Counted from the stretch's first letter, positions 7,294 through 64,000 are shown. The stretch: 64,000 nt of DNA from Chthonomonas calidirosea (GCA_945859975.1 CAMAPH010000001.1:64001-128000), one strand, 5' to 3'. Notes: generated from the sequence alone by a model not told the origin. Translations and numbers: made by a program.

Positions 7294-7299
7294 TTGACC

Positions 7300-7696: not shown

Positions 7697-7703
7697 AGCA
7701 TTT

Positions 7704-8852: not shown

Positions 8853-8905
8853 ACAACGGATTTTACTAAGGCAGATATCGTGAGTTCGCAAGGTACAACG
8901 CGTGC

Positions 8906-15652: not shown

Positions 15653-15674
15653 TCCAAGTTCAAGGGAACAATTT

Positions 15675-15839: not shown

Positions 15840-15844
15840 TTCAG

Positions 15845-18007
15845 ATGCTAGGCCTCGTCTTGGGTTTAGCGGTTCTGCCCTTTGCTACGGCAAGCTCCCA
15901 GACAGAGTCGGCTTCCTTTAGCCGCGCCCAAGATACGCATATCGTTAGCCTCGAGCCGGATGAAAATTTCGGGGGCAGCGCAACACTCAGCGGCGGACCG
16001 GATCGAACTATTCTGATCCGGTTCCCCGAGATCTCTACCCTTAACGGAAACAGAGTCAAAGTCAAGTCGGCGACGCTTCGTCTAACGATCGTCGCCGGAG
16101 ACAAACCCGAGTTTCGCCAGATCGGTGCGATTAAGTCCCCGTGGTCAGAAGGTCCCTTACGGACATTCATCAAGAACTTTCAGGCCAAGCCAAACCTACC
16201 CGTTGGTACCAAGACACCTGCCCCTATCAATGCGGCGACTTGGCGTGAGCGTTTCGGCCAACGAGCGGGCTGGCAACGACCTGGAGCTCAAGGTAACAAC
16301 GACGCCACTGAAATCCCTAACGTCCAGGTGACCTCTTCGGAATCGGAGGTCCTCGTCGGTGGTCTTGGCCCTACCGTCCAGAACTGGATTTCAACTCCAG
16401 AGCAGAATTTTGGGATCGCGCTGAAGCTTGCGAACAAATTTGAGTTCGCCAGCGCGCAGTCCACGATCGGTCAGCCCACGCTAATCGTGGAGTTTGAGCC
16501 AGCCACGAGCGCGACGGGCCCTGATCTGGCGATTGACTCCGTCGAGTCAGCGGCGGACGGACTAAGCATAACCGTTACGAATCTTGGTACCGAGCCTGCC
16601 AAGTTCAGCCTGAGCGCCAACGGCGATGAGCGAACCGGAAGCGAGATTGGTAGCGCCGCTCCACTTGCCCCCGGAAAGAGCGAAACGGTTAAGGTTTCGA
16701 AGCCTGCAATATCGAAGCTTGGTGAAGATTTCGCAAAACCCATTCGAATTCAACTGGTCACTGAGGGCGCAGACGCGAATCCGGAGGACAACCATTGGAC
16801 GTTCTACGACGGCGCGCCGAGCGTACGTGTAGCCCCAGAGCAATGGGCTCAACTCAAAAAGACGACGAGCTTGTTCAACGAGCTTTTGCTACCCATGAGC
16901 CGATACTCGTGGTGCCCCTCTGGGACGTCGGCGCGGGTAAATCCTTCGCGCTCCGCTGAGGCGACCTTGCTCCCGGACGGGTCCATCAAATCCGTCGCTC
17001 TCAGCCTCGGAGCACCAGACTTTTCTGCCACCAACTTCGATCAGACGAAGCCGCCATTCTCGACATCTCGTCGAGGGTCATCAGACTTGGCTCCGGGCTT
17101 AACGGGTTACGGCGACACCCGGTTCGAGGGAACGCTGCCGGGAACGCTCACGATTCCGTACGAGCCGTCATCCAGCCCAATATTCGATGTCACGCCGCTT
17201 TCGGTCCAAGCGTTGCTACCCGCAACGGACATTGCATTTATTGACGCGAAGCACAGAGGAAAGGCGGTCGAGTTACCCAAGACCACGATTATTCGAGTGC
17301 TTGACCTCGTAGGGCGCCCAATTTCGGGAGCCGATTACATTCTGTTGAACCCGAGCACTGGCGTACCTTTTGCCGAAGGAAAAACGGGAACCGGCAGCGT
17401 GGTGCTTCCCGCAACAACGGCTGGAGAACCTGCTGGCATGCGACTCCTTCGCGTTACCAAAAATGGAGTCTCCGACGATTTTTGGATCAAGACCTGGCAA
17501 CTCGTGGACACAGCGGCTCGCGGAAATCAGGCGGTGGCGTTCCTAGAGGCGAGACTCAACCTGCCTGATCTTTCGATCGAGCAATCCGATCTTGCCAAAG
17601 GAAAATCCATTTCCAACTCGGAAAACGATCCTCCAGCAAAACTTGTTTCCTTGGTTGGGAACGGTGCACCGTCGGGCGTTACTTTCGTCGGTAAGGATCG
17701 TGCGTGGGTCGAAATTGATCTCGGGCGAGACAGAACCATCGCGGAGATTGCGCTCTTTTCTGAGGGCGATTTTTGGAAGTCATTCCAGATTCTCGGATAC
17801 GGCACCGGGCAACGCGTGGACGAAGCTTCGCCCTTCGCCATCGAAGCAGACTTTCGGTGGGCTTTTGCGAACCGAAAAGACGCCGACGGCGCGGTTCGAT
17901 ACCGAGGACCGGCACCACGAGTGCGATTCATCCGCATCATCAATCGTGGCAAGTCAGACGGCCGATTAAACCGAATTGAAATCAAAGCTGCCCAACTGCC
18001 CGGCTAA
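15845..18007 (+). CDS. Secreted multidomain protein (DNRLRE-like, CARDB-like and C-terminal discoidin/F5/8-like domains)
   Basis: Signal peptide; QDTHI..PDENFG..RTILIRF..VKSATLRL; PDLAI..VTNLG..DANPEDN; WVEIDLG..RFIRI. Confidence 0.65.
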   Translation: MLGLVLGLAVLPFATASSQTESASFSRAQDTHIVSLEPDENFGGSATLSGGPDRTILIRFPEISTLNGNRVKVKSATLRLTIVAGDKPEFRQIGAIKSPWSEGPLRTFIKNFQAKPNLPVGTKTPAPINAATWRERFGQRAGWQRPGAQGNNDATEIPNVQVTSSESEVLVGGLGPTVQNWISTPEQNFGIALKLANKFEFASAQSTIGQPTLIVEFEPATSATGPDLAIDSVESAADGLSITVTNLGTEPAKFSLSANGDERTGSEIGSAAPLAPGKSETVKVSKPAISKLGEDFAKPIRIQLVTEGADANPEDNHWTFYDGAPSVRVAPEQWAQLKKTTSLFNELLLPMSRYSWCPSGTSARVNPSRSAEATLLPDGSIKSVALSLGAPDFSATNFDQTKPPFSTSRRGSSDLAPGLTGYGDTRFEGTLPGTLTIPYEPSSSPIFDVTPLSVQALLPATDIAFIDAKHRGKAVELPKTTIIRVLDLVGRPISGADYILLNPSTGVPFAEGKTGTGSVVLPATTAGEPAGMRLLRVTKNGVSDDFWIKTWQLVDTAARGNQAVAFLEARLNLPDLSIEQSDLAKGKSISNSENDPPAKLVSLVGNGAPSGVTFVGKDRAWVEIDLGRDRTIAEIALFSEGDFWKSFQILGYGTGQRVDEASPFAIEADFRWAFANRKDADGAVRYRGPAPRVRFIRIINRGKSDGRLNRIEIKAAQLPG

Positions 18008-38276: not shown

Positions 38277-41200
38277 TAGCTTAGCTCCTGCGATAGATCG
38301 AGGGCGAATGGGCAGTATGGATCATTTGCTAGCGCTAAGTTCAGCACTAGCCGTGCAGATTCAAAGTTGCCTAATCCCGCATAGGCTTGAGCAAGCATAA
38401 GATCGGCAGACTTGTTTTGTCTAGCCTGTAGATTGTCTTTAAACAGAAGCATTGTTGGTAGAGATGTTGCGAAGTAGTCGATTTTGGCCGTCATGGTCCG
38501 AAGCTGAATGGCGTAGTTCTTCAGGGCTAGAAGCATCTCCTCTGCTTCCACCGCTCTCCCTAGTGCTTGCAGAGACCTTGCTTGGAAGTAGGAGAGTTCC
38601 GAGTGCTGTAGAACGCTCATTTCTTGAAAGTCGCCCTTGAAGTTGGCTGCTCGTTCATAGTGGCTACGAGCCGCCGCATGGTCTCCCAGTGCCGCGTAGT
38701 GGGTCGCAGCTTGATACCAGAGGTTGCTGGCGTTGGCGAGTGCATGTCGACTTTCGCCGAGATTATCGGGGGGATTGATTGCGGCAAGAATATGTTGGAG
38801 TTTTTGCTCAGGTGCCTCGGCTTCTCGGCTTAAAAGTTCTTGTGCTCTTGCCCAGGCACCAAGGGCGATACCTTCTCCGCCTTCCCAGGGGGTGAAAGTC
38901 TTGCTACTCAGAACCTCTACGGCTCGGCGTGGATTGCCAGTGATGTTGAGTAGAGTGGCGTACTCTAGCGTTAGATCATCTCGCTTTGAGTTGAGATCCG
39001 GCTTTGATTCCAAGCGGGCGAGTCGTTCTATGGCGGCCGATCCTAGTCGTTTGTCGAGTTGGTCTCGTTCGTAGAGGAATCGTGCTTCTGCTGGCTCGGC
39101 CTCCATCGCTTTTTCATAGCACGTCATGGATGCGGCTGCGTCACCTTGGATATTGAACTTGCCGATTCCAAGGTTCCTCCAGGCAACGGCCAAACTTGGA
39201 TTTGCTTCTACTGCCCTTTCCCAACATGCGATGCCATCAAGGTGTCGCCGACGGTCGTAGTAGAAGTTCCCGAGCAACATCAGGGCGACGGCGTCGACTG
39301 GATATCGCTCGACGTGGGATTCAAGTTTTTTAAGTTCTTGAAGCCGATTTGGGAAAAGGTCAGCCAGCTTCGCCGTGTGTGGACACTTTTCGCCAAGAAA
39401 CACTTTAGCCATCGGATCTTGGTCAGCGACTTGTCCGATGAGTACGCGGGCTTCGGATTCGGCACCTACTTCTTCTAGGTTAATCGCCAAGTCTAAACGT
39501 GATTGGAAGTTATCCAGCACGGCCGTGTTATAACGCCGCGTGATCTCATCCGTGGTCGAATCCGGGAGCATGTGGAGTTCATAGAGCGCCCAATGGTCAA
39601 GCGGATCGACTTTGAGTACAGAGTCGAGAACTTCTTTTGACTTGGCTTGCTCACCGAGTTTGCGGTAGCAATGAGCTTCCATGCAATGCAAGTCGTTCGC
39701 ATCTGCTAGAGAGAGCTTCGCGGTGGAAAGAAGGCTTAGTGCATGATCGTACTTGCCTTCTCTCATTGCAATACGGGCCATTGCCATATGCGAAGCTCCT
39801 TTCGTGGCGTAGTTCCAGGCGGCTTTGCCGAAGTGGTTATAGGCAGACCGATACTCGCCCCCCAGTTCCTCCGTTACCCCTAGCAGATAGTAGGCTTCTC
39901 CAGAATTTGGGTTCGGGTTCAGTTTTGTCTGTAATTCAATCGCAGATTTGAACCGAGTCTTAGCTTCCGCCCACAGACCTCGCTGCAGGGCTCGTTTGCC
40001 AAGGCAAACGTGACTCTCAACGTGTCCAGGGTCACGACGGAGAGCCTCGTGCCAGTAGTCCTCAGGTGCTCGAGTCGCGTGGCGGTACTGGTCTAGATGG
40101 ACTGCAATGCGATGAAGCTCAGAAACGGAATCAACTTCTGACGGTAATTTTGGCTCTTGTGCCTGCACCGGAGCGGGCTGCTCACTCAGCTTTGAAAAGT
40201 CAAATGAAACAAGTTCGACTCCGTCTGCGGACACCAATGATGCTGAAAGAATTTCGGAATCGAAGGTCCGGAGGAGCGGATCCTCTAGCGATACATTTAC
40301 CGTCTCTTCCCGAGTCTGATCTCCATATCGGACGGTCAGGAGCGCTCCTGCTACGGGGGCGGAAGGGCAGATGCCTAGACGATTACCGTCGACCGATAGG
40401 GCAGCATGTCGGGTTGCGTTTGCGGCTGGGCCAATTTTTCGGATAGGGTACCAAAACTGACTGAATACCTTTGTCTCGTATGGCGCAATGAAAGAAAAGT
40501 CGGGTTGGTTGTCGGTGTAAACACCCGCCATTAGCTCAACGTAGGGCCCACCTTCATCGGTTAAGTTACGATCCCACGCGTATCCGAACTCGTGATTTCC
40601 CCACGTCCATTGCTTCTTGCCGGGCGAGATTGTTCGGTCGGCTACGTGGATAAACCCAGCCTCAGCCTGATGATCGTAGCCACCGAAGAACTCAAAGTCG
40701 GTCGCCGTAACCATGTACGATGTGGGAACGGGAATATTGGCGTACCAGTCAAGCCGATTCGGATCAACGTCTGCGAGGGGATTGAAGTGACTTGGCACCT
40801 CATTCTCCGGAATCCCGTTTGAAGGACGCTCGCCGTAAGCTACGCCGTAGTACGATGTATCGCAGGCAGGAAAGCTTGAAGTAGCTCGCTTTGCATGATC
40901 GGCAACCGACGCGACATCTTTCGGAAAGAACGATTGATAGAACTCGTGAACGCGGGCTGCCACGTTTGCCCACCAAAGAAAGGTCTGCGTTAGCGGCGTT
41001 CGATTGTAGAGCCTTGCCTTGAGTTCAATGAGGCTACTCTCAGGTCGCAACTTGAGACCATGCATCCCTTTCATTCGATTCATCGGCTCGTGCTCACTTA
41101 GCCAGTAGATCTTCGAACCATCTTCTTCAACCTCAAGGCACCATTCGCATGGCATGTAGGTGCTCGGACGGTGATGTTGGGGCCAGTTGAATTCGACACC

Positions 41201-41551
41201 ACCCGAGATCCAAGGACCCGCAAGTCCGACGAGAGCAGGCTTAATCACTTCCTGTCGATAGAAAAAGTCGTAATTCGAAACCTTGTCGTATCCGATGTGG
41301 ATGCGTCCTCCAATCTCAGGAAGGATCATTAGCTCGACGTACTTATTTGCGAGCGAGAGTGCTTCATAGCTCTTGGGACACTTGGTTGTTGAGACTGAAC
41401 TATAGAATGGAAGAGGATAGACTCGTCCACTGCTTCCCTGATACACCCGAGTTTCAAGGAACATTGGAGCTTGCTCAGGAGCGCCAACCGAGTATGTATC
41501 GAACGTTACGGTATGTGATTTCGCGGTGACCTGATCTTTGGAAGTCATCAT
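38276..41551 (-). CDS. DUF5107-domain protein with long TPR array
   Basis: LPEIGGRI, IKPALVGLAGPWISGGVEFNWPQHHRP, PGKK.WTWG, YVELMAG.YTDNQPDF, then TPR repeats. Start at ATG 41551 (ATGA overlap). Confidence 0.85.
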   Translation of the reverse strand: MMTSKDQVTAKSHTVTFDTYSVGAPEQAPMFLETRVYQGSSGRVYPLPFYSSVSTTKCPKSYEALSLANKYVELMILPEIGGRIHIGYDKVSNYDFFYRQEVIKPALVGLAGPWISGGVEFNWPQHHRPSTYMPCEWCLEVEEDGSKIYWLSEHEPMNRMKGMHGLKLRPESSLIELKARLYNRTPLTQTFLWWANVAARVHEFYQSFFPKDVASVADHAKRATSSFPACDTSYYGVAYGERPSNGIPENEVPSHFNPLADVDPNRLDWYANIPVPTSYMVTATDFEFFGGYDHQAEAGFIHVADRTISPGKKQWTWGNHEFGYAWDRNLTDEGGPYVELMAGVYTDNQPDFSFIAPYETKVFSQFWYPIRKIGPAANATRHAALSVDGNRLGICPSAPVAGALLTVRYGDQTREETVNVSLEDPLLRTFDSEILSASLVSADGVELVSFDFSKLSEQPAPVQAQEPKLPSEVDSVSELHRIAVHLDQYRHATRAPEDYWHEALRRDPGHVESHVCLGKRALQRGLWAEAKTRFKSAIELQTKLNPNPNSGEAYYLLGVTEELGGEYRSAYNHFGKAAWNYATKGASHMAMARIAMREGKYDHALSLLSTAKLSLADANDLHCMEAHCYRKLGEQAKSKEVLDSVLKVDPLDHWALYELHMLPDSTTDEITRRYNTAVLDNFQSRLDLAINLEEVGAESEARVLIGQVADQDPMAKVFLGEKCPHTAKLADLFPNRLQELKKLESHVERYPVDAVALMLLGNFYYDRRRHLDGIACWERAVEANPSLAVAWRNLGIGKFNIQGDAAASMTCYEKAMEAEPAEARFLYERDQLDKRLGSAAIERLARLESKPDLNSKRDDLTLEYATLLNITGNPRRAVEVLSSKTFTPWEGGEGIALGAWARAQELLSREAEAPEQKLQHILAAINPPDNLGESRHALANASNLWYQAATHYAALGDHAAARSHYERAANFKGDFQEMSVLQHSELSYFQARSLQALGRAVEAEEMLLALKNYAIQLRTMTAKIDYFATSLPTMLLFKDNLQARQNKSADLMLAQAYAGLGNFESARLVLNLALANDPYCPFALDLSQELS

Positions 41552-42408
41552 TTTAATCCCGTGGTGGAAATGCCTTGCACAAATGCCTTTTGGGCGACGA
41601 AGTAAACAATAATCACTGGCGCGATGACCATCAGCGACGCGGCCATCAGAAGGTTCCAGGGCGTTCCGGTGTGCTGGTTTTGGAAAGCTTGCAATCCGAG
41701 CGAGACGGTGAAGTTTCGCTGATCCGTTAGATAAAGTAGGGGTCCCAGGAAGTCGTTCCAAGACCAAAGGAACGTGAAGACGGCCACGACGGTAAGTGCA
41801 GGCTTCGCAAGCGGGATGATGACTTTCAGAAACACACCAAACGGGCTGGCACCGTCAAGGACGGCAGCCTCGCTTAGCTCCTTCGGAATTGCCATGAAGA
41901 ACTGGCGAAGGAGGAAGATGTTAAAGGCACTACCGAAGAAGGTAGGAACCCACAGGGGCCTGAAGGTTCCAATCCAACCAAAGTCGCGAAACAGCTTATA
42001 GAGAGGAACGATTAGAATCGGACCGGGAACCATCATGGTTGCCAGGGTTAGCGCGAAGAGCCATCTCTTCCCTTTCCACTCAAGGCATCCAAACGCATAT
42101 CCAACGAGACTGTTTGAGATCACCGATCCGGTGATGCACAGAATCGCTAAAAGAACAGAGTTCTGCGCATAGCGCAGAAACGGGATGTATCCCAACTCTT
42201 TGGAACCATACGTCACCGCATCGGAGTAGTTCGAAACCTGAATTTTGTCCGGGATCCACTTTGGCGGACTCGTCATCGTCTCATCCAGCGGCTTCAAAGA
42301 CGTCACAACCATCCAAACGAGCGGAAGCGCAAACAGGAAAGCTAGAACGAGCAGCGCTCCAAGCTGAAGAGCCTTTGTTAAAAGTATTTTTTGTTCCTTT
42401 GAAAGCAT
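41548..42408 (-). CDS. Carbohydrate ABC transporter permease (MalG-like)
   Basis: IPKELSEAAVLDGA (EAA loop) and WNDFLGPL. Start at ATG 42408 (TAATG overlap). Confidence 0.9.
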   Translation of the reverse strand: MLSKEQKILLTKALQLGALLVLAFLFALPLVWMVVTSLKPLDETMTSPPKWIPDKIQVSNYSDAVTYGSKELGYIPFLRYAQNSVLLAILCITGSVISNSLVGYAFGCLEWKGKRWLFALTLATMMVPGPILIVPLYKLFRDFGWIGTFRPLWVPTFFGSAFNIFLLRQFFMAIPKELSEAAVLDGASPFGVFLKVIIPLAKPALTVVAVFTFLWSWNDFLGPLLYLTDQRNFTVSLGLQAFQNQHTGTPWNLLMAASLMVIAPVIIVYFVAQKAFVQGISTTGLK

Positions 42409-47659: not shown

Positions 47660-48052
47660 ATGTCAAGTACTCACCAAAAAGTAAGTGCCTTGGATACGGC
47701 GACCGGGCGGCCCGATTACACGCCGGAAACGGCCGCGCGGGGAGTGATGGAGGCGGTGCGGATTTTGGAAGGGCGATGGAAGCTCTCCATCCTGTTTCAC
47801 TTGTTCGATAAGGGAACGCTCCGCTTTTCCGAACTGTCGCGGGCGATTCCGGAGATTTCCGAGAAGATGCTGATTCAGCAGTTGCGCCAGCTTGAGGCGG
47901 ACGGAGTCGTCTCGCGGCACATTTATCCGCAGGTTCCGCCAAAGGTCGACTATTCGTTGACGGAGGTCGGCAAAGCCCTGTGCCCGGCGCTGGACGCGAT
48001 TTTGCTTTGGGCGGAGCAGCGGGAGCGGTTACGGGCTTGTGCCGGCGATTGA
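47660..48052 (+). CDS. HxlR-family winged-helix regulator
   Basis: GRWKLSIL..L, RFSEL.R.IP.ISEKML.QQLRQLE.DG.V.R..Y..VPPKVDYSLT. Start at ATG 47660. Confidence 0.9.
   Translation: MSSTHQKVSALDTATGRPDYTPETAARGVMEAVRILEGRWKLSILFHLFDKGTLRFSELSRAIPEISEKMLIQQLRQLEADGVVSRHIYPQVPPKVDYSLTEVGKALCPALDAILLWAEQRERLRACAGD
47661..47686. promoter_or_regulatory. Putative HxlR operator next to a perfect TTGACA (-35, minus strand) for the SnoaL-like gene
   Basis: ACTCAC-N6-GTAAGT inverted repeat (47669-47686); tgtcaa at 47661-47666. Confidence 0.6.
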
Positions 48053-49153
48053 ATCCAACCGCTGACCTTTGATCGCCTTTGCCATGAGTTCCGGGAACAT
48101 TTCGGGCGTGCAGGCGAAGGTCGGAATATCGATGGAGGCCAGGAAGGCGGCGTTGTTTTTGTCGTACATCGGCGAGCCTTCGTCGCTGAGGGCGAGGAGG
48201 CAGATCAGGTTGACGCCCGACGCTTTGATGGCGGCGGCGCGCTTGAGGAACTGCTCGTTCTCGCCCCCTTCGATGAGGTCGCTGATGAGGATCATGATGG
48301 TGTCACTCGGGGCGCGGACGAGGCCCTGGGCATAGCGAAGCGCCTGCTCGATATCGGTGCCGCCGCCGAGTTGAACGCTAAACAGCATTTCCACCGGATC
48401 TTCGACGACGGAGGTCAGATTGACGACGGACGTATCGAAGGCGATGACTTGGGTGTTGACGGCGCGGATTGACGCGAGGGTGGCACCGAAGACGCCGGCA
48501 TAGACGATGGAGGAGGCCATCGATCCGCTCTGGTCGAGGCAGAGGATGACATCGCGCAGGGCACGGCCGGTTCTGCCGTAGCCAACGAGGGTCTCCGGGA
48601 TGATGGTTTTGTAATCGGCTTGGTAGTGCCGGAGGTTGGCGCGGATGGTGCGGTTCCAGTCCATCTCGCGCAGCTTTGGCCGCAGGTTTCGGACGGATTT
48701 CGAAATGCTTCCGGCGACGGCTTGGCGCAGCGGGTTCGAGAGTCGTTTCTCGAGGTCTTCGACCACTTTGCGGACGACCATCCGGGCGGTATCGCGAGTT
48801 TTCGCCGGCAAAACGTGGCTGAGGGACATCAGGGTTGCGACCAAGTGGACATCGGGCTCGACGACGGCGAGGCACTCGGGTTCCAGTAGCATTTTGTGGA
48901 GGTTCAACCGGTCCATCGCGTCCCGCTGCATGATTTGGACGACGCTTTGCGGGAAGTATTCGCGGATATCGCCGAGCCAACGCGCGACGTTTGGCGAGGA
49001 CGGGCCGAGGCCGCCGCGTTGCTCGCTATCGTAAAGCGCTTCCATGGCTTGGTCGAGTTGGGCGTCTCTTCCGGCGAGGGTGTAGCCCGTGCCGTCCGCA
49101 TCGCTTCCGCCCAAGATGAGCCGCCATCGGCGTATTCGTTCTGTCTCAGTCAT
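48029..49153 (-). CDS. vWA-domain protein (YehP/CoxE-like)
   Basis: RRWRLILG N-terminus, MIDAS DQSGSM, GGGTDI, LISD motifs. Confidence 0.9.
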   Translation of the reverse strand: MTETERIRRWRLILGGSDADGTGYTLAGRDAQLDQAMEALYDSEQRGGLGPSSPNVARWLGDIREYFPQSVVQIMQRDAMDRLNLHKMLLEPECLAVVEPDVHLVATLMSLSHVLPAKTRDTARMVVRKVVEDLEKRLSNPLRQAVAGSISKSVRNLRPKLREMDWNRTIRANLRHYQADYKTIIPETLVGYGRTGRALRDVILCLDQSGSMASSIVYAGVFGATLASIRAVNTQVIAFDTSVVNLTSVVEDPVEMLFSVQLGGGTDIEQALRYAQGLVRAPSDTIMILISDLIEGGENEQFLKRAAAIKASGVNLICLLALSDEGSPMYDKNNAAFLASIDIPTFACTPEMFPELMAKAIKGQRLDSIAGTSP

Positions 49154-51386
49154 TTGCTAGCCCCAAAATTTGTCGGATCACGGGAAGGACGCGGTTTGCC
49201 CGCGCTTCATCGATGTCGGATTCTTGTGATTGGATGGAGATGCCGCCGGTTAAGCGCTCGCCGATTTGGCGGCGTTCGGGCTTGGTGAAAAGCGAGAAGG
49301 TCCGCCGGATGAGCGGAAGGATTTCGTCGACGGTCTCGGTGTCGAGGTCGGTTACCCAGGCATCGACCGCTTCGAGAAGCGGGGTTTGGTGGAGCAAAAT
49401 GGTGCCAGGACCGTCGAGAAGGCCCTCTACGAACATCGCGGTTTCGAGGGCGGTTGCGCCGGAGGATGCCTCTTGGCCCAAGCGGATGGCCAGAGTTTCA
49501 CCCTCAATCGCGCCGAGATCGAATCGGACGCGTTCGGCCTTGCCTTGCACGAGGCGATGAATGCCGTTCAGTTCCGCAATTTGTCGGAGCGATTCTAGCC
49601 AGAGGTCGGTTTTTGCCGGGTCGCCAAATAGCGCGACGACGCCGGTCACGCCGCTAATGCGTTCGGCCATCACGCGGGCGGCGGCATCATCGAGCGAGTG
49701 GCAGGCGTGGGGTAACCCGATGCAAAGCCGGGTGAAAATGGCATCGAGCACAGGGACGACGAGGTCGGATCGGGTGCCTCGCACGGAGCCGTACCGGACC
49801 ACAGCGGCAAGGGGCGGGAGGGCGCTCGCGAGGTCGGCCACGTCGGCGGTGACGGCAGAAATGGCCTGGAGTTGGGTGACGGTTGGTTCGATGGCACCGG
49901 AAAGGTCGGCCTCCAGCACGCGCTCGACGAGCCGGGCGATTTCTGCGAGGCTCTCTGCTTCAATCGCGTTGGCGATGGCGCAGCTGGTGGCGGCAGATTC
50001 GACGGTGTTGCCGTAGAGGCTCGCTTCGATGAGGGCAATCGTGAGTTCGGGCGTCCATCGCAGGAGCCAGTGCTCATGAAAGGTGCCGCGCTTCCCTTTT
50101 GCCTGTTCGGGAATGCCCCAGTCAACTTTGAGCAGCGCGAGGCGGTGCAGGAGCTGACTGCGTTCTAGGTCGGTGGCGTTTCGGAGGTCGAGTTCTAGCC
50201 TCTGCTCGCCATCGCTCACCTTCATCCGCAATCGCTTTTGGAGGGCGGCGAGGTTGGCCTGCAGCGGAATCATCGGGATCGACTCCGGCACGTGGCCCAT
50301 GCGCTCGCCGACGATGAGGCGCTTGCCGATGAGGTTCCAGACGACGGAGTCGCGAATGAGGACGGAGTTTGCCGCGTCGCGAAGCTCGCGCAGCCCGGGC
50401 TTCGGGCGGCCCCGGAGGGAGGCGAGGGCGTCGGCAAGGCGGACGGCTTCGATGACGCTGGCGGGAGAGGCGTCGAGGTCTTCTTCTCGCATGAGGCGGG
50501 CAACGGAGAGGAGCCAGTTTGCGGAGATGTCTTGCGGATCTGACTTCCAGATTAGGTCGTAGAAGGCGGGCGACCTTGCGCCGGCACCGTAGCCGGAGGC
50601 GAAAGTGAGCCGCTCATAGGTCCACGGGACGACGGTCGAGCCAACTTTCAGCTTCGGCAGGCCCTTGAGGAGGGCGTCGTCTGGTTTTGCGGTTTGGAGT
50701 TCTTTCAGCGCGGGCACATGCCAGGCTCCGCAGACGACGGCGATGCGCTCGTGTCCGGCGGCGAGGGCAGCGCGGATGGTGCGCCGCATGAAGGCTTCTC
50801 GGAGCTCATTGAATTCAGCGTCGGTGACTTTGCGGCGGTCATCGTCTTCGTTAGCGTCCTCGTCTTCGGTTGCATCTTCGCTCGATGCTTCTCGGAGCGC
50901 GCACATGAGGGTGTCGATTCCGGCGAAGAGTTCGCTCGCGTCGGATCGGTGCTCGACGAGATGCTCCCACCAGTCCTCGCCGTCGTCGAATCCGGCGGCG
51001 GTGGCGATTTGCTCCATGACGTCCGAGTTCGGCTTGCCCACGACATTTAGGGCGAGCATGGTGGCGGCGGGCAGGTCCATGAACGTCACCGGCACTTCGT
51101 GCGCGGCGGCCCAGCGGAATGCCTGCAGCTCGGGCGAGAACTCGGCGAGGGGATAGTATGAGGCCAATCGCGGGGTTTCGAGAGCGTATTCCAGCATCGC
51201 GACCGGGGTCTCTACCGCCGGGTCGAGCAGGAATGGGATCAGTGATTCGGAGCCGGAAGGGCCCTCGACGAGGACGGCTTGCGGCTGCCACTCATTGAGG
51301 GCGGCGACGAGTGAACGGGCCGAGCCGGGCCCGTGGTGCCGAATTCCGAACAGGCGGACCGAACCGCTTACAGAAGTTCTCGACAT
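49146..51386 (-). CDS. DUF5682 (YehM-like) protein
   Basis: GIRHHGPGSAR, VLVEGP, P.AEFSPE, FMDLP, REAFM, VVCGAWH, SGYGAG motifs. Start uncertain (51386 or 51407). Confidence 0.85.
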   Translation of the reverse strand: MSRTSVSGSVRLFGIRHHGPGSARSLVAALNEWQPQAVLVEGPSGSESLIPFLLDPAVETPVAMLEYALETPRLASYYPLAEFSPELQAFRWAAAHEVPVTFMDLPAATMLALNVVGKPNSDVMEQIATAAGFDDGEDWWEHLVEHRSDASELFAGIDTLMCALREASSEDATEDEDANEDDDRRKVTDAEFNELREAFMRRTIRAALAAGHERIAVVCGAWHVPALKELQTAKPDDALLKGLPKLKVGSTVVPWTYERLTFASGYGAGARSPAFYDLIWKSDPQDISANWLLSVARLMREEDLDASPASVIEAVRLADALASLRGRPKPGLRELRDAANSVLIRDSVVWNLIGKRLIVGERMGHVPESIPMIPLQANLAALQKRLRMKVSDGEQRLELDLRNATDLERSQLLHRLALLKVDWGIPEQAKGKRGTFHEHWLLRWTPELTIALIEASLYGNTVESAATSCAIANAIEAESLAEIARLVERVLEADLSGAIEPTVTQLQAISAVTADVADLASALPPLAAVVRYGSVRGTRSDLVVPVLDAIFTRLCIGLPHACHSLDDAAARVMAERISGVTGVVALFGDPAKTDLWLESLRQIAELNGIHRLVQGKAERVRFDLGAIEGETLAIRLGQEASSGATALETAMFVEGLLDGPGTILLHQTPLLEAVDAWVTDLDTETVDEILPLIRRTFSLFTKPERRQIGERLTGGISIQSQESDIDEARANRVLPVIRQILGLAND

Positions 51387-52450
51387 GCGCGATAAAGGTC
51401 CTTCCACTCGCTCCGTTCCTTCACCACGGTTTCGAGATACTCCTTCCAGGCCAGGGTGTCTTGGCTGGCGTCTTTGATCACGGCTCCGGTGAGGGCACTG
51501 GCGAGATCGGCGGCGCGGAGCTTGCCGTCGCCAAAGTGGGCGGCCATGGCAAGACCGCTGTTTAGGACGGAGATCGCTTCGGCGGTGCTGAGGGTTCCGG
51601 AGGGGACCTTCAGTTTCGTTTTCTTGTCGAGCGTCATGCCTTCGCGGAGCTCTCGGAAGATGGTGACGAGGCGCTTGATGTCTTCTAGGGCGGGTGGTTC
51701 GGCGGGGAGTTCAAGGGCTCGGCCAATGGCTTCGGAGCGCTGGCGCACGATCTCGGCTTCTTCCTCAAACGTGTCGGGAAGGGGCAGGTGGACGGTGTTG
51801 AAGCGGCGTCTTAAGGCCGAAGACAGGTCGTTGACGCCGCGGTCTCGGTCGTTGGCGGTGGCGATGACGTTGAAGCCTTTTCGCGCTTGGACTTCGTCGT
51901 TCAGCTCGGGGATCGGGAGCGACTTTTCGGAGAGGACGGTGATGAGGGCGTCTTGGACGTCGGATGGGATTCGGGTGAGTTCTTCGACGCGGGCGATTTT
52001 GCCGGTTTCCATCGCGCGCATGATGGGCGAGGGCACGAGGGCGGAGCGGGATGGGCCTTCGGCGAGGAGTTTGGCGTAGTTCCAGCCGTAGCGCAGGGTT
52101 TCTTCGCTGGTGCCGGAGGTGCCTTGGACGAGGAGGGTGGAGTCGCCGGAGGTCGCGGCGGCGAGGTGCTCGGCGAGCCAGGTTTTGGCGGTTCCGGGGA
52201 CGCCGAGCAGGAGCAACGCGCGATCGGTGGCTAGGGTGGCGATGGCGACTTCGACAATCGTCCGCTTGCCGATGTACTTCGGCGTGACTTCGAAGCCGTT
52301 TGGCAGGGTGCCGCCGAGAATGTACGTTGCCACCGCCCAGGGGGACAGCTTCCAGCTTGGCGGACGCGGCCGGTCGTCGGCCTTGCCTAGCTCGATGAGT
52401 TCGGACTGAAAGGCCTGTTCGGCGTGTTGGCGGAGGATAGGTTCATTCAT
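51368..52450 (-). CDS. MoxR-class AAA+ ATPase (YehL-like)
   Basis: Walker A GVPGTAKT, Walker B ARVEELTR, ATANDRDRGV..LSSALRRRF. Confidence 0.9.
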   Translation of the reverse strand: MNEPILRQHAEQAFQSELIELGKADDRPRPPSWKLSPWAVATYILGGTLPNGFEVTPKYIGKRTIVEVAIATLATDRALLLLGVPGTAKTWLAEHLAAATSGDSTLLVQGTSGTSEETLRYGWNYAKLLAEGPSRSALVPSPIMRAMETGKIARVEELTRIPSDVQDALITVLSEKSLPIPELNDEVQARKGFNVIATANDRDRGVNDLSSALRRRFNTVHLPLPDTFEEEAEIVRQRSEAIGRALELPAEPPALEDIKRLVTIFRELREGMTLDKKTKLKVPSGTLSTAEAISVLNSGLAMAAHFGDGKLRAADLASALTGAVIKDASQDTLAWKEYLETVVKERSEWKDLYRACRELL

Positions 52451-52482
52451 GGTTCTGTACTCAGAGAATTAGGCGGGGAGGT

Positions 52483-53865
52483 CTAGGCGAGGGAATCTAG
52501 GCTGGATAGCAGGCGTTTTCGGAGGCTCAAAATGTTGCGCACTTCGAGGCGGGTGTCTTCGAAGACGTGGTGCTGTTCGATTGGCATCTCGGTCCGCGAG
52601 ATGGCATCGACATGCATGTTGAGGGCGAAGAAAGGAAGAATGACGTGGGAACTGCTGCTCGTTTTCAAAGTGTCAATTAGGGCGCAGGAGAGCTCGAAGG
52701 ATAGGGGACGCTTTGACGCAATGATCATCTGCACGATCAAGTCCGATTGATACTCCACGCCGCGAAGACCCTTGAGGGCAATTCGCTCGAACATTTCCGT
52801 ACTGGCGTGGGCGGCAAGCGCTCTACCCTTGAATTTGTAGATGTCCGAGCGAGAAACGAGTAATTCGTACAAAGCATCGAGCCAAGGCTGATCCTTAAAG
52901 CGAACGGCGGCAACGATGAGGCCTTCCAGCATCGCCCTATGATAGTCAGACTTACTCATGTGCTCAAAGAACTTCTCGCGGGCCCCGTTGGTGCCCCATG
53001 TAGACGGTGGGACATAGCTGACGACGTCAATGAGAGCCATGGCCTTCGGGCCCATTCCATCGATCTCAGGCGATTTGGGCAGCCACTTTGGAAGCTCACT
53101 TCGCTCTGGGGCTTCGATGATAAGGCTTGTGCTCAGGAACGATTTCTTCCAGTTTAGGATCGGGGCCGCGAGCAGGGCTAGTTCGTGCGCTACTTTGAAC
53201 GATGCTTGGGACGTGAGGAGCTCGAGTGCCGCCTCGCGGACCTCTTTTCGGCGATCCTTGAGTGCGACTTCTAGGATGGGTTCGTCGTGGATGCTGAGTT
53301 GGATTTGCAGTTGATTGACGGCTTTCAGGCGCTCTTTCCAATCCATCGTTTCGTACTCTGCCGTGAGCCACTCGCGGTAGGCGGCGGGGTCTTCGGTGCG
53401 CTTTGCGGCGAGCTTTTCGTCTTCGGATGGAGAGAGGTCAAGCCCTTGAAGCTGGGCGAGCCAGTGGCCGCGCTCGCCGATGACGGGAAGCAATTCCTCT
53501 CGGTGCTTTTTGATTAGGGGAAGGATCGCGGTGAGCAAGGCAGGCGGCAGGACCGCCCGACGCTGCTTCGCTTTCGCGGCCCATTCCAGGACGACGGGGG
53601 TCATCTTCTTATCTAGGGCCTCGCTCAGCGGCGCCTCAGATGCTTCGGCCACGTGGCCGATTTCCTGCGGTGCGGTGGGGAGCGGTTTAACTGAATCTAT
53701 GCCGACGACTCCGGCGCGGCGCATGAGATCGAGGGTGCCAGCTAGGACCAGGGCCTGCTTTTCAGATTTCTCGCCGGGCGTTTCGGGCAGGAAATCAACG
53801 GTGGGCAACGAGGCGCGCTGGGTGCCCACTTGGATGACGCTTGCAACTTCGTTAAAGGTCTTCAT
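52483..53865 (-). CDS. DUF5691-like helical (HEAT-like) protein
   Basis: VGTQR N-terminus, LPP.LL..IL, GERGHWLA, DE..LE.AL.DRRKEVR.AA..LL, VPP..W motifs. Confidence 0.75.
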   Translation of the reverse strand: MKTFNEVASVIQVGTQRASLPTVDFLPETPGEKSEKQALVLAGTLDLMRRAGVVGIDSVKPLPTAPQEIGHVAEASEAPLSEALDKKMTPVVLEWAAKAKQRRAVLPPALLTAILPLIKKHREELLPVIGERGHWLAQLQGLDLSPSEDEKLAAKRTEDPAAYREWLTAEYETMDWKERLKAVNQLQIQLSIHDEPILEVALKDRRKEVREAALELLTSQASFKVAHELALLAAPILNWKKSFLSTSLIIEAPERSELPKWLPKSPEIDGMGPKAMALIDVVSYVPPSTWGTNGAREKFFEHMSKSDYHRAMLEGLIVAAVRFKDQPWLDALYELLVSRSDIYKFKGRALAAHASTEMFERIALKGLRGVEYQSDLIVQMIIASKRPLSFELSCALIDTLKTSSSSHVILPFFALNMHVDAISRTEMPIEQHHVFEDTRLEVRNILSLRKRLLSSLDSLA

Positions 53866-53869
53866 TGCA

Positions 53870-55144
53870 TTACGTCCAAGGGTCGTCGGAGCCGCAGAGA
53901 ACGTTCAGGCTGGAGCCGTTCCATTCTCCAACGATTTCGATGGGTTGATTGCCAAATAGGGCAACGAGATACCAAGGGTCTTCTCCGTTTAACGGAAGGG
54001 CGCGACCTGAGGAGTCGATGACGAACCAGTCGGAGTCTTTTTGGCCGAAGCTTCCGGCGCTGATGGGAATGGGGACGCGCTCCGCCCACGGATTCTGGGA
54101 CCAGACATCCGCCGCGAACTCTAAGCCTTCCGCAATGAGGCCGCCTTTGCGGGGCTGGAAGGGTTGAGGTTCTATTTCGGTTAGATTGACCCGAAGGGGA
54201 TAGGCGGACGGGTAGTACTGCGCTTTCGCATGGAATGCCGTTCCAATGAGCGGCTGAAAATCGAACGGTTGTCCCGCGGCGGAGAACGCGAGGTGCAAGG
54301 CCCACTTGCCGGTAGAGCGTGCCTGGAGCCAGCTTCGGCAGGTGGTGATGCGATCTTCGGTTTCGATGGCGCTTCCGAGCACGTCCCAAACGTCTTCGAC
54401 CGGTTCGCCGGTGAGGTCCTCTTTTCGGAATGGAATTCCGACGGCAGTGCGGACGTCGGCCTTCAAACCTTCGGGGAGGGTTTCGATTCGCTTTGCCGCT
54501 TCAAGGAGTAGCGTTAGGTTGCCGAGCTGACCGGCAACATTGGGTCCCCAGGCCTCGCCGACGCCGATGGCGTTTCCGATTCGCTTAAGTCTGGTTGCGA
54601 TTCCGGGAGCTTGGGCGTCGACCATGCGCGCGGCCATTTGGTCCCAGCTTCGGGCAGATTGCGACGCATAGAGTCCTTGGGAGACCGCGTCTTCGAGGAA
54701 CGACTCGCACTCTTCGATCCCGGCGAGGATTTTGCTCCAGCGCTTTTCGGTTCGCTTTTCGGCGTCTGCGGGAGACGCGGCGGGGGTGGCGGCGGCTTTC
54801 TCGGCCTTTTGCTCGGATCGCTCCGCTCGCTTATCTAACCATTCTTGGACCCAGGTTGGCGGGGTTCCCGGTTCGATTTCGCTCTTAGCGTGGCGGAAGA
54901 GGAGTCCGAGGGCGTGCTTGCAGGGGAGTTTTCGGCTGGGGCAGGAGCACTTGTACGCGAGGTCCTTCAGATCGACGGCGGTTTGGTAAGGGTTCTTGCC
55001 GCTTCCCTTTGCTTCTCCCCACGCGGCGAGGTCGGTCTCGCCGATGCTTGCCCACTTGGCGGGGCTAGCCAGTTCTCGCCCGGCGCTGGCCGCCGCAGCG
55101 TCCGGGGCAAGCGCGATCACTTGTTCCGGGGTTAGGCGGGGCAT
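53870..55144 (-). CDS. SWIM zinc-finger protein (YehQ-like)
   Basis: LAPD, WGE.KGSG..PY, CSCPSRKLPCKHALGL, AARMVDAQAPG motifs. Confidence 0.88.
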   Translation of the reverse strand: MPRLTPEQVIALAPDAAAASAGRELASPAKWASIGETDLAAWGEAKGSGKNPYQTAVDLKDLAYKCSCPSRKLPCKHALGLLFRHAKSEIEPGTPPTWVQEWLDKRAERSEQKAEKAAATPAASPADAEKRTEKRWSKILAGIEECESFLEDAVSQGLYASQSARSWDQMAARMVDAQAPGIATRLKRIGNAIGVGEAWGPNVAGQLGNLTLLLEAAKRIETLPEGLKADVRTAVGIPFRKEDLTGEPVEDVWDVLGSAIETEDRITTCRSWLQARSTGKWALHLAFSAAGQPFDFQPLIGTAFHAKAQYYPSAYPLRVNLTEIEPQPFQPRKGGLIAEGLEFAADVWSQNPWAERVPIPISAGSFGQKDSDWFVIDSSGRALPLNGEDPWYLVALFGNQPIEIVGEWNGSSLNVLCGSDDPWT

Positions 55145-55360
55145 TCGACAGTTTTACTCTACTGGAAAATCATTTCGGGCAGAATCCTGGCCTCATTTTC
55201 GGTCTGATCGATTCGAGGTTGAACGGGAATCACCCTTGAGATTTGCGTGTATCGAGCTTGTCACGCAAGGAATCCGAAAGTGTCACGCCAGTGTCCTGCC
55301 AGTGTTACGGGCGAGGGATTCAATACATCCATCGGAGCGAAACCACTCCGGAAGGAACAC

Positions 55361-56116
55361 ATGAGAACATCCTTGATCGCCAGCGCTTTCGTAGCCATCG
55401 CCGCTATCTCGTCGTCCATCGCCGTTTCCGGGAACGTGGCAAAGAAGGCTACGAGCACCGACCCGCTTCACCTGACCCTGGCCAATGAGCTGGTGGATGG
55501 CATCCTCGCTCAGGCCGCCAACGGCGAAACCGAGGACGCCAGCGGAACCTTGACCAATCGGTACGGTGGCGCCGTGGGTAGCTACTACATCACCTTTGCC
55601 GACGCAAATGTGGAGGGGTCGATGTATTCCAACTTCACGCGCTGCGCTCCGTTTTTGACGCAACTCTTCAAAGCGGCTTACGGCTGGACGCCACCAACGG
55701 CGATTGGCAACAGCCCGGACCCTAAGAAGTACTACAACTCGATCGTGGATAACAAGAACGGATTCTCGAAGCGAGCCAAGTTCACCGACTGGCAGCCAGG
55801 TGACATCCTTGCGAGCCCCTATTACGATCCGAATCCGAACATCGGGCACGTGATGCTGATCCTAGGTGCGCAGGAGATTTCGAACAATGCAGAGACGAAA
55901 ACCCGTGAGTACGCAGTTCAGGTGCTGGACTCATCGTCTGATCAGCATTCTAGCGACACACGCACATTGTTTGGCAGCTTGCCGAAGGGCGTTGGTCGGG
56001 GAGTTATCAAGGTGAAGACCGTTGATGACCAAATCACGCAGTGGGCTTGGAAAGTGACCAACAGCTACTACAGCGGCAAGGACCGCCCGCTGGCGATCGG
56101 CAAGATCAACCAGTAA
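55361..56116 (+). CDS. Secreted protein, NlpC/P60-CHAP-like papain-fold hydrolase
   Basis: GGAAGGA SD before ATG 55361, signal peptide, RCAPF...PGDIL...GHVMLI...VLDSS motif order. Confidence 0.6.
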   Translation: MRTSLIASAFVAIAAISSSIAVSGNVAKKATSTDPLHLTLANELVDGILAQAANGETEDASGTLTNRYGGAVGSYYITFADANVEGSMYSNFTRCAPFLTQLFKAAYGWTPPTAIGNSPDPKKYYNSIVDNKNGFSKRAKFTDWQPGDILASPYYDPNPNIGHVMLILGAQEISNNAETKTREYAVQVLDSSSDQHSSDTRTLFGSLPKGVGRGVIKVKTVDDQITQWAWKVTNSYYSGKDRPLAIGKINQ

Positions 56117-62852: not shown

Positions 62853-63968
62853 CTAGTCTTCTTCTAGGACGTACTTCCCTCGTCGGCTTCCGCCGACGAG
62901 GACGGTTTCGCCGTCGTTCTTTTCTAGCGGCAGGAACTTCACTTCGGGCATTCGTTTCAGGTGTTGGGCGAGTTCGGTGGAGTGGGTGGTTACCCAGATT
63001 TGGCTCGACATTGAGGCGTACTCAAGCATTCTCGCCAGCGGCGCGATGGCGGCAGAGTTGAGGCTGGCTTCGGGCTCGTTGAAGAACATGAGTTGCGGCG
63101 GGTGCGGGTGGTAGCAGGCGGCAGCGAGGCAGAGGAATTTCAGGGTTCCGTCCGAGAGTTCGTGCGGCTCGGTTGCGCGCATTAGGCCCTGATGCAGCAT
63201 CTTGAATCGGATCCGATCCACGCTCAGGTCAGATTCTGGCAAGGCTTCCTTCACGCAGTCGACGAGGGCATCGTAGTTCCCAATCTCGTTGATGAGATAG
63301 AGGGAGGCACCCAAGTTGCTTCCATCCGAGGCAAACCGACGCGGGTACGTATCTGCGCTCAGCGCGCGAGCCGGAGAGCTCTCATCGGTTCGAAACTCGT
63401 GATAAAGGACCCACCGCTCCGCCGCTTGTCGAATGGCTTGGAGGTACGGATAGTCCTCAGCGTTTTCTATCTGCGCAAAGATCGATAGGGTTTCGATGAT
63501 CTCTGGATGCTTGACTTGCTCGCCCGTCAATTTTCGGAGCATGGCGGAACGGCTACCTCGGTCGACCATGACGCGGCCACCGAGCTTAATCACTTCCTTT
63601 TTGACCATTGGGTCCATGGGAAACATTGGCGGCACCATTCCCCAGGGCGGCTTGTTCGCAGCGGTAGTTTGAGTTTGAAACCCAAACTCGACTTCGTACT
63701 CAAAATCGTCGCTCACCACGTGCAAGCCGATCCGCTGGTTTGGCGCAACTTTCCGCGGCCCCGCCCAGAAGACGGAACCGAGTCCACCCTCGGCAACCAG
63801 CCGCTCGTTGAGCCGACCCAAAATCGTCTCCTTCACAAGCCGAAAGGCGTTGAACAGGTTGCTCTTGCCGCAGCCGTTTGCGCCGGTTACGACGTTGATG
63901 TGCTTCAGCCGCACTTCCAAGTCGTAGATCGACCGGTACTTTGAAACGCTGAAAGATCGAATCTGCAA
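62853..63968 (-). CDS. ABC-type ATPase (AAA_21 / COG4637-like)
   Basis: GANGCGKSN, LSDGT signature, FFNEPE (Walker B variant), TTHS motifs. Confidence 0.8.
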   Translation of the reverse strand: MQIRSFSVSKYRSIYDLEVRLKHINVVTGANGCGKSNLFNAFRLVKETILGRLNERLVAEGGLGSVFWAGPRKVAPNQRIGLHVVSDDFEYEVEFGFQTQTTAANKPPWGMVPPMFPMDPMVKKEVIKLGGRVMVDRGSRSAMLRKLTGEQVKHPEIIETLSIFAQIENAEDYPYLQAIRQAAERWVLYHEFRTDESSPARALSADTYPRRFASDGSNLGASLYLINEIGNYDALVDCVKEALPESDLSVDRIRFKMLHQGLMRATEPHELSDGTLKFLCLAAACYHPHPPQLMFFNEPEASLNSAAIAPLARMLEYASMSSQIWVTTHSTELAQHLKRMPEVKFLPLEKNDGETVLVGGSRRGKYVLEED

Positions 63969-64000
63969 GGCTTAACTCTCCGTTTCTAGAAACGCGCGGA

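Follow-up and report, generated by a model that had tools for sequence, protein, structure and literature searches.

Five minus-strand open reading frames (ORFs) fill exactly positions 48029-55144 of a 64,000-nucleotide stretch of DNA from Chthonomonas calidirosea (GCA_945859975.1, CAMAPH010000001.1:64001-128000; this whole stretch is called the window below). From first to last they encode a SWIM zinc-finger protein, a DUF5691 protein, a MoxR AAA+ ATPase, a DUF5682 protein, and a CoxE-like vWA protein, and together they form a conserved, tightly coupled cassette. The reading that we favor, with a probability of about 0.4, is that the five proteins work in the cytoplasm as a single ATP-driven machine belonging to the YehL class of MoxR systems, in which the MoxR and vWA proteins would gate a DUF5682 hydrolase that is served by a SWIM-HEAT arm. 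The copy in the window is an ordinary member of a widespread, unstudied family.

Organization of the operon

The SWIM gene (53870-55144, minus strand like the other four) encodes a protein of 424 amino acids (aa) that matches the Pfam SWIM family with an expect value (E) of 6.9e-6 and 25.9 bits, against a cut-off of 19.6. It is followed by the gene for DUF5691, a HEAT-like alpha-solenoid protein (52483-53865; 460 aa; Pfam DUF5691, E = 2e-54), and by that for the MoxR-type ATPase, which is of the YehL subfamily (51368-52450; 360 aa; Pfam AAA_5, E = 2.2e-39, 135 bits against a cut-off of 22). The last two genes encode the DUF5682 protein, a homologue of Escherichia coli YehM (49146-51407; 753 aa; Pfam DUF5682, E = 2.4e-225), and the CoxE-like vWA protein, a homologue of YehP (48029-49153; 374 aa; Pfam VWA_CoxE, E = 2.2e-44, 152 bits against a cut-off of 26.4). 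All five Pfam matches exceed the curated cut-offs; a search of NCBIfam returned a specific model for none of the five proteins. Because of these Pfam scores, and because the gene order is conserved in other genomes, chance is excluded as an explanation of the cassette.

A preliminary description of this DNA had placed five co-oriented genes here, separated by 4 bp, 32 bp, or overlaps, and had read their SWIM, Walker A/B, and metal ion-dependent adhesion site (MIDAS) motifs as intact. The exact ORF coordinates confirm the layout, and the motifs can be read from the alignments described below, Walker B having the form E-E. The gap is 4 bp between the SWIM and DUF5691 genes and 32 bp between DUF5691 and MoxR, whereas MoxR and DUF5682 overlap by 40 bp and DUF5682 and vWA by 8 bp, with the vWA start lying over the DUF5682 stop. 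Translation of vWA is coupled to that of DUF5682. The true DUF5682 start is possibly at residue 8 (position 51386), as in the database copy, which would make the overlap with MoxR 19 bp.

Upstream of the SWIM gene lies a divergent intergenic region of 102 bp (55145-55246, no strand assigned), presumed to be the promoter region of the operon. Consensus scans found neither a sigma-70-like minus-strand site in this region nor a terminator-like minus-strand site inside the operon, and the promoter and terminator scans gave nothing above the shuffled expectation; the operon structure therefore rests on spacing and conserved gene order.

The composition of the operon is atypical for the window. Its GC content is 0.617, compared with 0.559 in the rest of the window, and is the highest among all 7.1-kb intervals (mean 0.565, standard deviation 0.025). 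GC at third codon positions (GC3) ranges from 0.69 to 0.79 in the operon and from 0.52 to 0.69 in twelve other long genes of the window. The least GC-rich gene of the operon is DUF5691 (0.575). This composition hints at a horizontal origin without proving one.

The cassette in other genomes

The DUF5682 family has at least 8000 database proteins at E <= 1e-5, and among the matches listed the closest named relatives of the window protein are from Fimbriimonas (Armatimonadota; 61-62% identity). A scan of one genome per species gave at least 592 places confirmed by tblastn, the best 80 of which we analyzed, calling the cassette families with phmmer and one profile round over all ORFs of the loci. 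These 80 loci span about ten phyla, which include Chloroflexota, Cyanobacteria, Acidobacteriota, Actinomycetota, Bacteroidota, Pseudomonadota, Myxococcota, Planctomycetota, Verrucomicrobiota, and others.

In 52 of the 80 loci, the five genes lie on one strand in the order SWIM-DUF5691-MoxR-DUF5682-vWA. The median gaps in these loci are -14, -4, 10, and -4 bp; since the ORF caller uses the first possible start, the true overlaps may be smaller. All five families are present in 63 loci, that is, in 63 of the 69 that are free of contig-end cuts (counting split ORFs, two divergent Streptomyces layouts, and four gene fusions), and the genes thus co-occur across genomes. The 11 loci cut by a contig end are compatible with a complete cassette. 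Six of the 80 lack a part despite room for it; in L005 and L027 it is the SWIM gene that went undetected.

We found no sixth conserved gene. When 621 flanking ORFs were clustered, the top families, a generic ATP-binding cassette (ABC) ATPase, a hybrid histidine kinase, and a DUF4132 protein, occurred in 8, 5, and 5 of the 80 loci, respectively. The DUF4132 protein, of ~975 aa, stands directly after vWA in five Bacteroidota loci by clustering, and four of these, of Chitinophaga type, are confirmed by Pfam (plus strand; L039 13411-16332, L042 13440-16361, L046 13450-16425, and L054 13421-16357, the last also with a HEAT match). DUF4132 joins the MoxR-DUF5682-vWA core repeatedly, because it does so both in these Bacteroidota loci and in E. 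coli, where YehI is encoded near yehL. An uncultured Bacteroides (L034) has another MoxR system in addition to the cassette, and this one is of the beta-propeller ternary type: Its bpMoxR gene (14874-16421, minus strand; E = 1.3e-52) is on the other strand, ~1.5 kb downstream of the cassette.

ATPase and vWA components

Alignment of the MoxR protein with E. coli YehL (40% identity over 360/362 residues, E = 8e-80) places Walker A (GVPGTAKT) at residues 83-90, a Walker B motif of the form hhhhEE at E156 and E157, sensor-1 at N200, and an arginine cluster at R214-R216. Walker B reads E-E rather than D-E, and the same is true of YehL itself. With intact AAA+ motifs, a closer match to YehL than to the other MoxR subfamilies represented in NCBIfam, and a vWA gene in the same locus, the protein falls in the YehL subfamily. 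The nearest NCBIfam models, of MadB and GvpN types, are both matched far below their cut-offs. The primary classification of the MoxR subfamilies is reportedly that of Snider and Houry (2006). YehL is a named subfamily, for which the relevant passages of two papers give no function, and the MoxR functions published there are mostly in maturation or cofactor insertion (PMC3893208, PMC11432383). As a member of the YehL subfamily, the ATPase would be a putative hexameric ring whose activity is stimulated by the vWA protein.

The MIDAS of the vWA protein is complete (D207xS209xS211...T266...D292): All 31 aligned sequences share D207, S209, S211, and D292, while T266 is nearly invariant. With a mean column identity of 61%, vWA is the most conserved of the four aligned components (MoxR was left unaligned), and its identity to E. 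coli YehP is 33% (E = 7e-71). Its scores against the NCBIfam models for ViaA (17.3 bits, cut-off 500) and for a putative cobaltochelatase subunit (14.9 bits, cut-off 779) are far below what these models require. The protein, of 374 aa, has no extra domain.

The DUF5682 protein

An AlphaFold2 model of full-length DUF5682, built on a 27-sequence alignment, has a mean predicted local distance difference test score (pLDDT) of 85.2 and a predicted template modeling score (pTM) of 0.80. It divides into a predicted N-terminal alpha/beta domain (residues ~17-270; 50598-51359, minus strand) and a predicted C-terminal alpha-solenoid (residues ~280-750; 49158-50570, minus strand), with helices only beyond residue ~455 according to DSSP. 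Near its end the C-terminal part carries a conserved LPLxRRTF...PERRQxGE, in which L697, P698, R702, and E711-R713 are invariant. Foldseek comparison of the full-length model with the PDB gave only weak matches to solenoids of the importin-alpha/ARM/HEAT type (E = 0.004-0.2), because the C-terminal repeat dominated.

The N-terminal domain modeled alone (33 sequences) reached a pLDDT of 87.5 and a pTM of 0.88. Its Foldseek search covered 350,542 PDB chains, and the BFVD viral library was searched independently. In the PDB, a 383-384-residue subunit of Tetrahymena complex IV holds ranks 1, 6, and 7 (E = 0.0045-0.13), and the erythromycin esterase EreC holds ranks 2 and 3 (6xcq and 6xcs; E = 0.014 and 0.024, probability 0.77-0.80). 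Lower in the ranking are BcR135 (2rad, rank 11, E = 0.23), HopBA1 (5t09, rank 29, E = 0.42; template modeling [TM] score 0.33/0.39, root-mean-square deviation 6.8 Å), and RRSP (5w6l, rank 37, E = 0.56). The top BFVD match is a 'TraB family protein [Marseillevirus]' (E = 1.3e-4, probability 1.00). EreC, BcR135/136, ChaN, HopBA1, PMT, and RRSP are described as sharing one fold, that of the TIKI superfamily, with catalytic His, Glu, Arg, and His residues (passages of PMC6254334 and PMC7979712). A TraB-family subunit is described in Tetrahymena complex IV (a passage of PMC10060162). The top PDB match, 7w5z_E, may be that subunit; a YbaP profile gave no match to the chain.

Residues H24, H25, E48, R203, E204, R208, and H230 are invariant in 27 of 27 DUF5682 sequences. 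In the predicted structure, G21-x-R-H24-H25 comes after the strand at 17-22, E48 ends the strand at 44-50, R203-E204...R208 lies within the helix at 196-216, and C226-G-A-W-H230 comes after the strand at 222-227. The spacing between the first His and the Glu is 23-24 residues in DUF5682 (H24/25-E48), 26 in E. coli YbaP, of the TraB family (H41-E67), and 28 in EreC (H50-E78); that between the Arg and the last His is 22-27 (R203/R208-H230), 24 (R228-H252), and 28 residues (R261-H289), respectively (EreC residues from a passage of PMC7979712). This matching of the residue set of DUF5682 with those of EreC and YbaP was made by eye on sequence and predicted secondary structure. E. coli YehM keeps the His/Glu/Arg/His residues despite an identity of 27%.

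The predicted model and this residue set make it likely, in our judgment, that the N-terminal domain belongs to the TIKI/TraB/erythromycin-esterase fold, and they lend support to the idea of the preliminary description that DUF5682 is enzyme-like. We rate hydrolase activity below fold membership, because one member of the fold, ChaN, is a haem binder and no enzyme. A feature search of the ESM Atlas with DUF5682 gave no usable match, and a profile search for short stand-alone relatives of the N-terminal domain found only fragments annotated as DUF5682.

The SWIM and DUF5691 proteins

The SWIM motif reads C66xC68x6C75xH77, and its Cys and His residues are invariant in 32 of 32 sequences. Downstream of the motif the protein has a charged linker, a helical region with a conserved RMVDAQAPG, and a beta-rich C-terminal half; its mean column identity over 32 orthologues is 44%. 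Beyond the zinc finger we found no match in PDB sequences or Pfam, and the ESM Atlas gave SWIM clusters only.

DUF5691 is the fastest-evolving component, with a mean column identity of 29% and six invariant columns. Its profile matches designed HEAT-like alphaRep proteins in the PDB (E = 0.003-0.1), in agreement with the HEAT-like subunit of the preliminary description, and the match to Pfam HEAT_2 is below threshold (E = 0.35). In all, the cassette encodes two or three solenoid modules. We also considered DUF5691 as a relative of DUF4132/YehI or of YehQ, and hhalign detects no relation to either.

In four of the 80 loci, SWIM and DUF5691 are a single ORF of 925-994 aa (L035 6089-8938, L059 5913-8774, L072 5634-8618, and L076 1553-4330); the hosts are a Phytohabitans, two Nocardia, and one Planctomycetota metagenome-assembled genome. 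The fusion in L059 was verified, its SWIM part having 38% identity (BLASTP, E = 1e-76) and its DUF5691 part an hhalign probability of 100% (E = 3e-49). Since the two genes are naturally fused, SWIM and DUF5691 would act together. In two Streptomyces loci (L051 and L073) they lie on the opposite strand, divergent from MoxR-DUF5682-vWA, so that the cassette can also come as two transcription units, divided at the proposed boundary between sub-complexes.

Comparison with E. coli yehLMPQ

The gene order in E. coli K-12 is yehI (DUF4132), yehK, yehL, yehM, yehP, yehQ (in our comparison locus L001, yehI is at 6280-9912 and yehP at 13968-15104). The MoxR-DUF5682-vWA triad is in the same order as in the window, with genes that overlap or are tightly spaced, and the same 8-bp stop/start overlap is present. 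DUF5682 and YehM are 27% identical over about 550 residues (E = 9e-41). Like the window, the E. coli cluster encodes a SWIM-containing protein; however, yehQ (SWIM, 614 aa) follows vWA, whereas the SWIM gene of the window comes first, and YehQ shares with the window protein the zinc-finger motif only (BLASTP E = 1.2-1.8; hhalign probability 0.9%). A DUF5691 counterpart was not detected in the E. coli cluster, which instead has the DUF4132 protein YehI and YehK upstream. Judged by sequence comparison, the shared core is MoxR-DUF5682-vWA plus some SWIM protein, and the window cassette is a distinct, widespread subtype. The preliminary description had named yehL/M/P/Q as the counterpart, which is correct for YehL, YehM, and YehP, all homologous, and has to be narrowed to a common motif for YehQ.

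Of 5426 complete E. coli genomes, 5353 carry yehLMPQ (5210 at >=80% coverage). The median copy number is one, and 5371 of the 5374 places lie on chromosomes, so that the cluster belongs to the core genome. Among 72,556 plasmid records, 44 contain homologues, those listed being mostly large replicons, some of chromosome size; among 50,697 phage records, one does, an unannotated 14-kb contig. We found no function for yehLMPQ or for the window cassette in the literature searched, in keeping with the earlier statement that the system is functionally uncharacterized. The FSscan paper on the prediction of +1 ribosomal frameshifts mentions yehP (PMC2790909).

Neighboring genes

The operon is flanked by genes for GH127, GH30, GH43, and GH2-like glycoside hydrolases and for a sugar ABC transporter with a LacI regulator; further flanking genes encode a DUF5107-TPR protein, an amidohydrolase, an FG-GAP protein, and small HxlR, SnoaL-like, and DUF2199 proteins. 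The DUF5107 protein, which has many TPR repeats (1163 aa; 38276-41767, minus strand), is encoded by the last gene of a sugar-uptake and glycoside-hydrolase cluster that consists of the ABC transporter, LacI, GH30 with NPCBM, and the GH2-like protein. Divergent from the operon is an ORF of 289 aa (55247-56116, plus strand) without a Pfam or PADLOC match, which is not conserved beside the cassette elsewhere. The first 28 kb of the window hold housekeeping genes (TsaD, MnmG, Lgt, DprA, Sua5, shikimate dehydrogenase, YceG, and RuvX).

The sole candidate defense gene in the window, 7.7 kb from the operon at the window edge, encodes an AAA_21/SMC_N-type ATPase (371 aa; 62853-63968, minus strand) that matches PADLOC HEC-01A (E = 8e-44) and, more weakly, AriA and AbiLi. 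An open-ended ORF (63700-63999) lies by this ATPase gene, and any partner genes would be beyond the end of the window. The library used was PADLOC-DB v2.0.0, dated 2023, with newer systems outside its coverage; in it, four of the five cassette proteins have no match, and MoxR has only two weak matches to IetA (E = 8e-4 and 1.4e-3), at residues 71-100 around the P-loop.

The nearest flanks of the cassette elsewhere were annotated for 100 of 168 eligible ORFs, in 25 of 42 loci. The flanks in these 25 loci are heterogeneous, and about five of the 25 have any defense-like neighbor. Loci L037, L043, L032, and L034 adjoin type I restriction genes, a DNA methylase, an SNF2 helicase, and the beta-propeller-type MoxR, respectively. 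The preliminary description had spoken of an accessory neighborhood, with which the sugar-catabolic flanks do not agree. The anti-phage role that it thought plausible is not supported, given the missing specific PADLOC match, the sugar-catabolic neighbors, the heterogeneous flanks elsewhere, and the core status of yehLMPQ in E. coli.

Discussion

In the published mode of MoxR-vWA action, the MIDAS grips an acidic residue of a partner, which the MoxR ring then remodels with ATP (passages of PMC7159879 and PMC3893208). We propose that the vWA protein of the cassette would likewise hold an acidic residue of its partner while the MoxR ring would remodel that partner using ATP, as in other MoxR-vWA pairs. 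MoxR and vWA would gate or load DUF5682, because the only conserved partner candidates lie inside the cassette: The remodeling would either toggle DUF5682 between closed and active forms or load it with its substrate. Catalysis would fall to DUF5682, which would act as a hydrolase, most likely as a site-specific peptidase or esterase. The likeliest chemistry would be a specific cleavage, because those members of the fold that are active work either as site-specific peptidases (TIKI, RRSP) or as esterases (Ere). A second arm, made up of the SWIM zinc finger and the fast-evolving, HEAT-like DUF5691, would recognize the target or the trigger. The role in the cell would be a conditional housekeeping or stress function rather than that of typical defense-island cargo. 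A predicted complex of full-length DUF5682 with vWA residues 130-374 scored 0.00 in two runs without controls and counts neither way.

A larger claim would make DUF5682/YehM the core of a new class of ATP-gated intracellular site-specific hydrolases, in which a TraB/TIKI-fold peptidase is opened or loaded by its own MoxR-vWA motor and aimed by SWIM-HEAT proteins, and which would range from E. coli (yehLMPQ) to Armatimonadota-like bacteria, Cyanobacteria, Actinomycetota, and Bacteroidota. This claim we regard as doubtful. In a bolder variant, the His-His/Glu/His pocket may handle a metal or tetrapyrrole, and the system would be a chelatase-like machine whose large subunit is unrelated to CobN and BchH.

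Several observations weigh against a gated hydrolase of this fold. The Foldseek scores are modest (PDB E = 0.0045-0.6, TM scores 0.2-0.39; for the superfamily members among the top 37 ranks, E = 0.014-0.56 and TM scores 0.12-0.39), and there is a single BFVD match at E <= 0.001. hhalign of the N-terminal domain against YbaP/TraB gave a probability of 0.14-0.15%, with the second G-A-x-H motif alone aligned; the YbaP member alignment was shallow, with 12 enterobacterial sequences, and YbaP alone was also tried. Hidden Markov model (HMM) searches found nothing in either direction, the N-terminal domain HMM found nothing relevant among PDB sequences, and Pfam at E <= 10 yields DUF5682 alone. Even if the fold is right, it is no proof of catalysis, since the superfamily includes non-enzymes, among them ChaN, which binds haem (a passage of PMC7979712). 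The 80 loci are, moreover, the most similar of at least 592 and were retrieved with two peptide patterns that hold the His motifs, which over-represents this subtype and means that motif conservation is not measurable from them. Finally, DUF5682 stands without an adjacent vWA gene in four of the 80 loci (L009 275-2539, L011 10052-12259, L066 177-2441, and L067 3196-5445) and may not always need the ATPase; L011 and L067 also lack MoxR, SWIM, and DUF5691 within the stretch fetched. The partners of these orphan genes may be elsewhere in the genome or may be dispensable.

The proteins could instead belong to an anti-phage or conflict system, in which SWIM-HEAT would sense an invader and MoxR/vWA would release or activate a TIKI-like DUF5682 protease; its target would be a protein of the host or the phage, and the outcome would be like abortive infection. 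Such a system would resemble the NTP-dependent MoxR-vWA ternary conflict systems, and MoxR-vWA pairs are used in conflict (passages of PMC7159879). It would account for a self-contained cassette in variable contexts across about ten phyla, for the atypical GC and GC3 of the operon, and for the fast evolution of DUF5691; the fold has toxin and effector members (RRSP, HopBA1), some loci adjoin restriction, methylase, SNF2, or bpMoxR genes, and yehL and yehM appear in a paper on the silencing of horizontally acquired genes by H-NS/Hha (PMC3686432). However, a specific PADLOC match is lacking for all five proteins, the main text of PMC7159879 mentions neither SWIM nor YehL, that paper's third components are absent from the cassette, and about five of 25 surveyed loci have a defense-like neighbor, while the neighbors in the window are sugar-catabolic. 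Near-universal, chromosomal yehLMPQ in E. coli is also unlike variable defense cargo, and only one of the 50,697 phage records holds a homologue. We consider a conflict role unlikely.

A role as a chaperone for maturation or cofactor insertion, which we likewise think improbable, would have MoxR and vWA act on a metal or tetrapyrrole, inserting or removing it. DUF5682 would be either the large subunit that binds the metal or haem or the client enzyme, and the SWIM and HEAT proteins would be assembly factors. The CoxE-like Pfam family of the vWA protein, the MadB and GvpN types nearest to the ATPase in NCBIfam, and the chelatase-like layout of AAA+, vWA, and a large third protein all speak for it. 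The invariant His-His/Glu/His site could bind a metal, and the superfamily includes haem-binding ChaN and metal-dependent TIKI (PMC7979712 and titles cited in PMC6254334); core status in E. coli fits housekeeping, and most published MoxR functions are of this kind. Yet no client enzyme gene is conserved beside the cassette (the largest flank family, in 8 of 80 loci, is the generic ABC ATPase), DUF5682 shows no similarity to CobN or BchH (Pfam at E <= 10), the vWA matches to the ViaA and cobaltochelatase models are far below cut-off, and the fast-evolving SWIM-HEAT arm would be left without a role. That the genes are mere neighbors, with MoxR and vWA serving an unrelated client and DUF5682, SWIM, and DUF5691 independent of them, would fit the four loci in which DUF5682 has no adjacent vWA or MoxR, and E. 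coli, which has no DUF5691 and a different SWIM protein. Against this stand the gene order and close spacing that 52 of 80 loci from distant phyla preserve, the five families in 63 of 69 uncut loci, the triad order that is kept even in E. coli, the SWIM-DUF5691 gene fusion, and the 8-bp stop/start overlaps in both the window and E. coli, and we hold it to be very improbable.

Several known systems resemble the proposed MoxR/vWA-gated hydrolase in part. Large third proteins act as client or catalytic subunit in the chelatases BchI/BchD/BchH and CobS/CobT/CobN. CoxD-CoxE, NorQ-NorD, CbbQ-CbbO, and RavA-ViaA each pair a MoxR-type AAA+ protein with a MIDAS-bearing vWA protein, as the cassette does. 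Unlike in these maturation systems, a gene for a known client enzyme was not found near the cassette, and compared with the chelatases, the large subunit is unrelated to CobN or BchH and the vWA protein is below the chelatase cut-off. The MoxR-vWA ternary conflict systems share with the cassette the core pair, further operon proteins, a patchy distribution, and a proposed gating of the effector by the ATPase (Kaur et al. 2020; passages of PMC7159879). They differ in their VMAP, iSTAND, FtsH, and beta-propeller components, which Pfam finds in none of the five proteins (the bpMoxR match in the window, at 23.6 bits, is below the cut-off of 27), and in carrying variable effector domains on vWA, whereas the vWA protein of the window has no C-terminal effector domain.

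The TIKI/TraB/PrgY/ChaN/erythromycin-esterase superfamily is similar to DUF5682 in its alpha/beta fold with a parallel beta-sheet core, as predicted for DUF5682, and in the collinear G-x-x-H...E...R...G-x-x-H at strand ends, with similar spacing. In contrast, sequence-profile similarity to DUF5682 was not detected, and DUF5682 adds an alpha-solenoid of ~470 residues and is operon-linked to MoxR and vWA. We found no description of a MoxR/vWA linkage for the superfamily in the parts of the literature searched, and no publication on the five-gene cassette, on DUF5682, or on its fold (for PMC7159879, in the main text). The MoxR-vWA theme and the YehL subfamily are already known. What is probably new, on the strength of the predicted model, is a MoxR-vWA system with a TraB/TIKI-fold hydrolase as partner and a SWIM-HEAT arm.

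The YehL subfamily has no known client, and yehLMPQ, though core in E. coli, is as yet unexplained. The fold placement of DUF5682/YehM and its catalytic-type residues make an operon of unknown function directly testable. A division of labor among the five proteins is likely, and the SWIM-DUF5691 fusion supports it. If our reading is correct, a hydrolase would be a new kind of client for MoxR-vWA chaperones, and the fold of Wnt processing, pheromone control, macrolide resistance, and bacterial toxins would be tied to an ATP-driven regulator.

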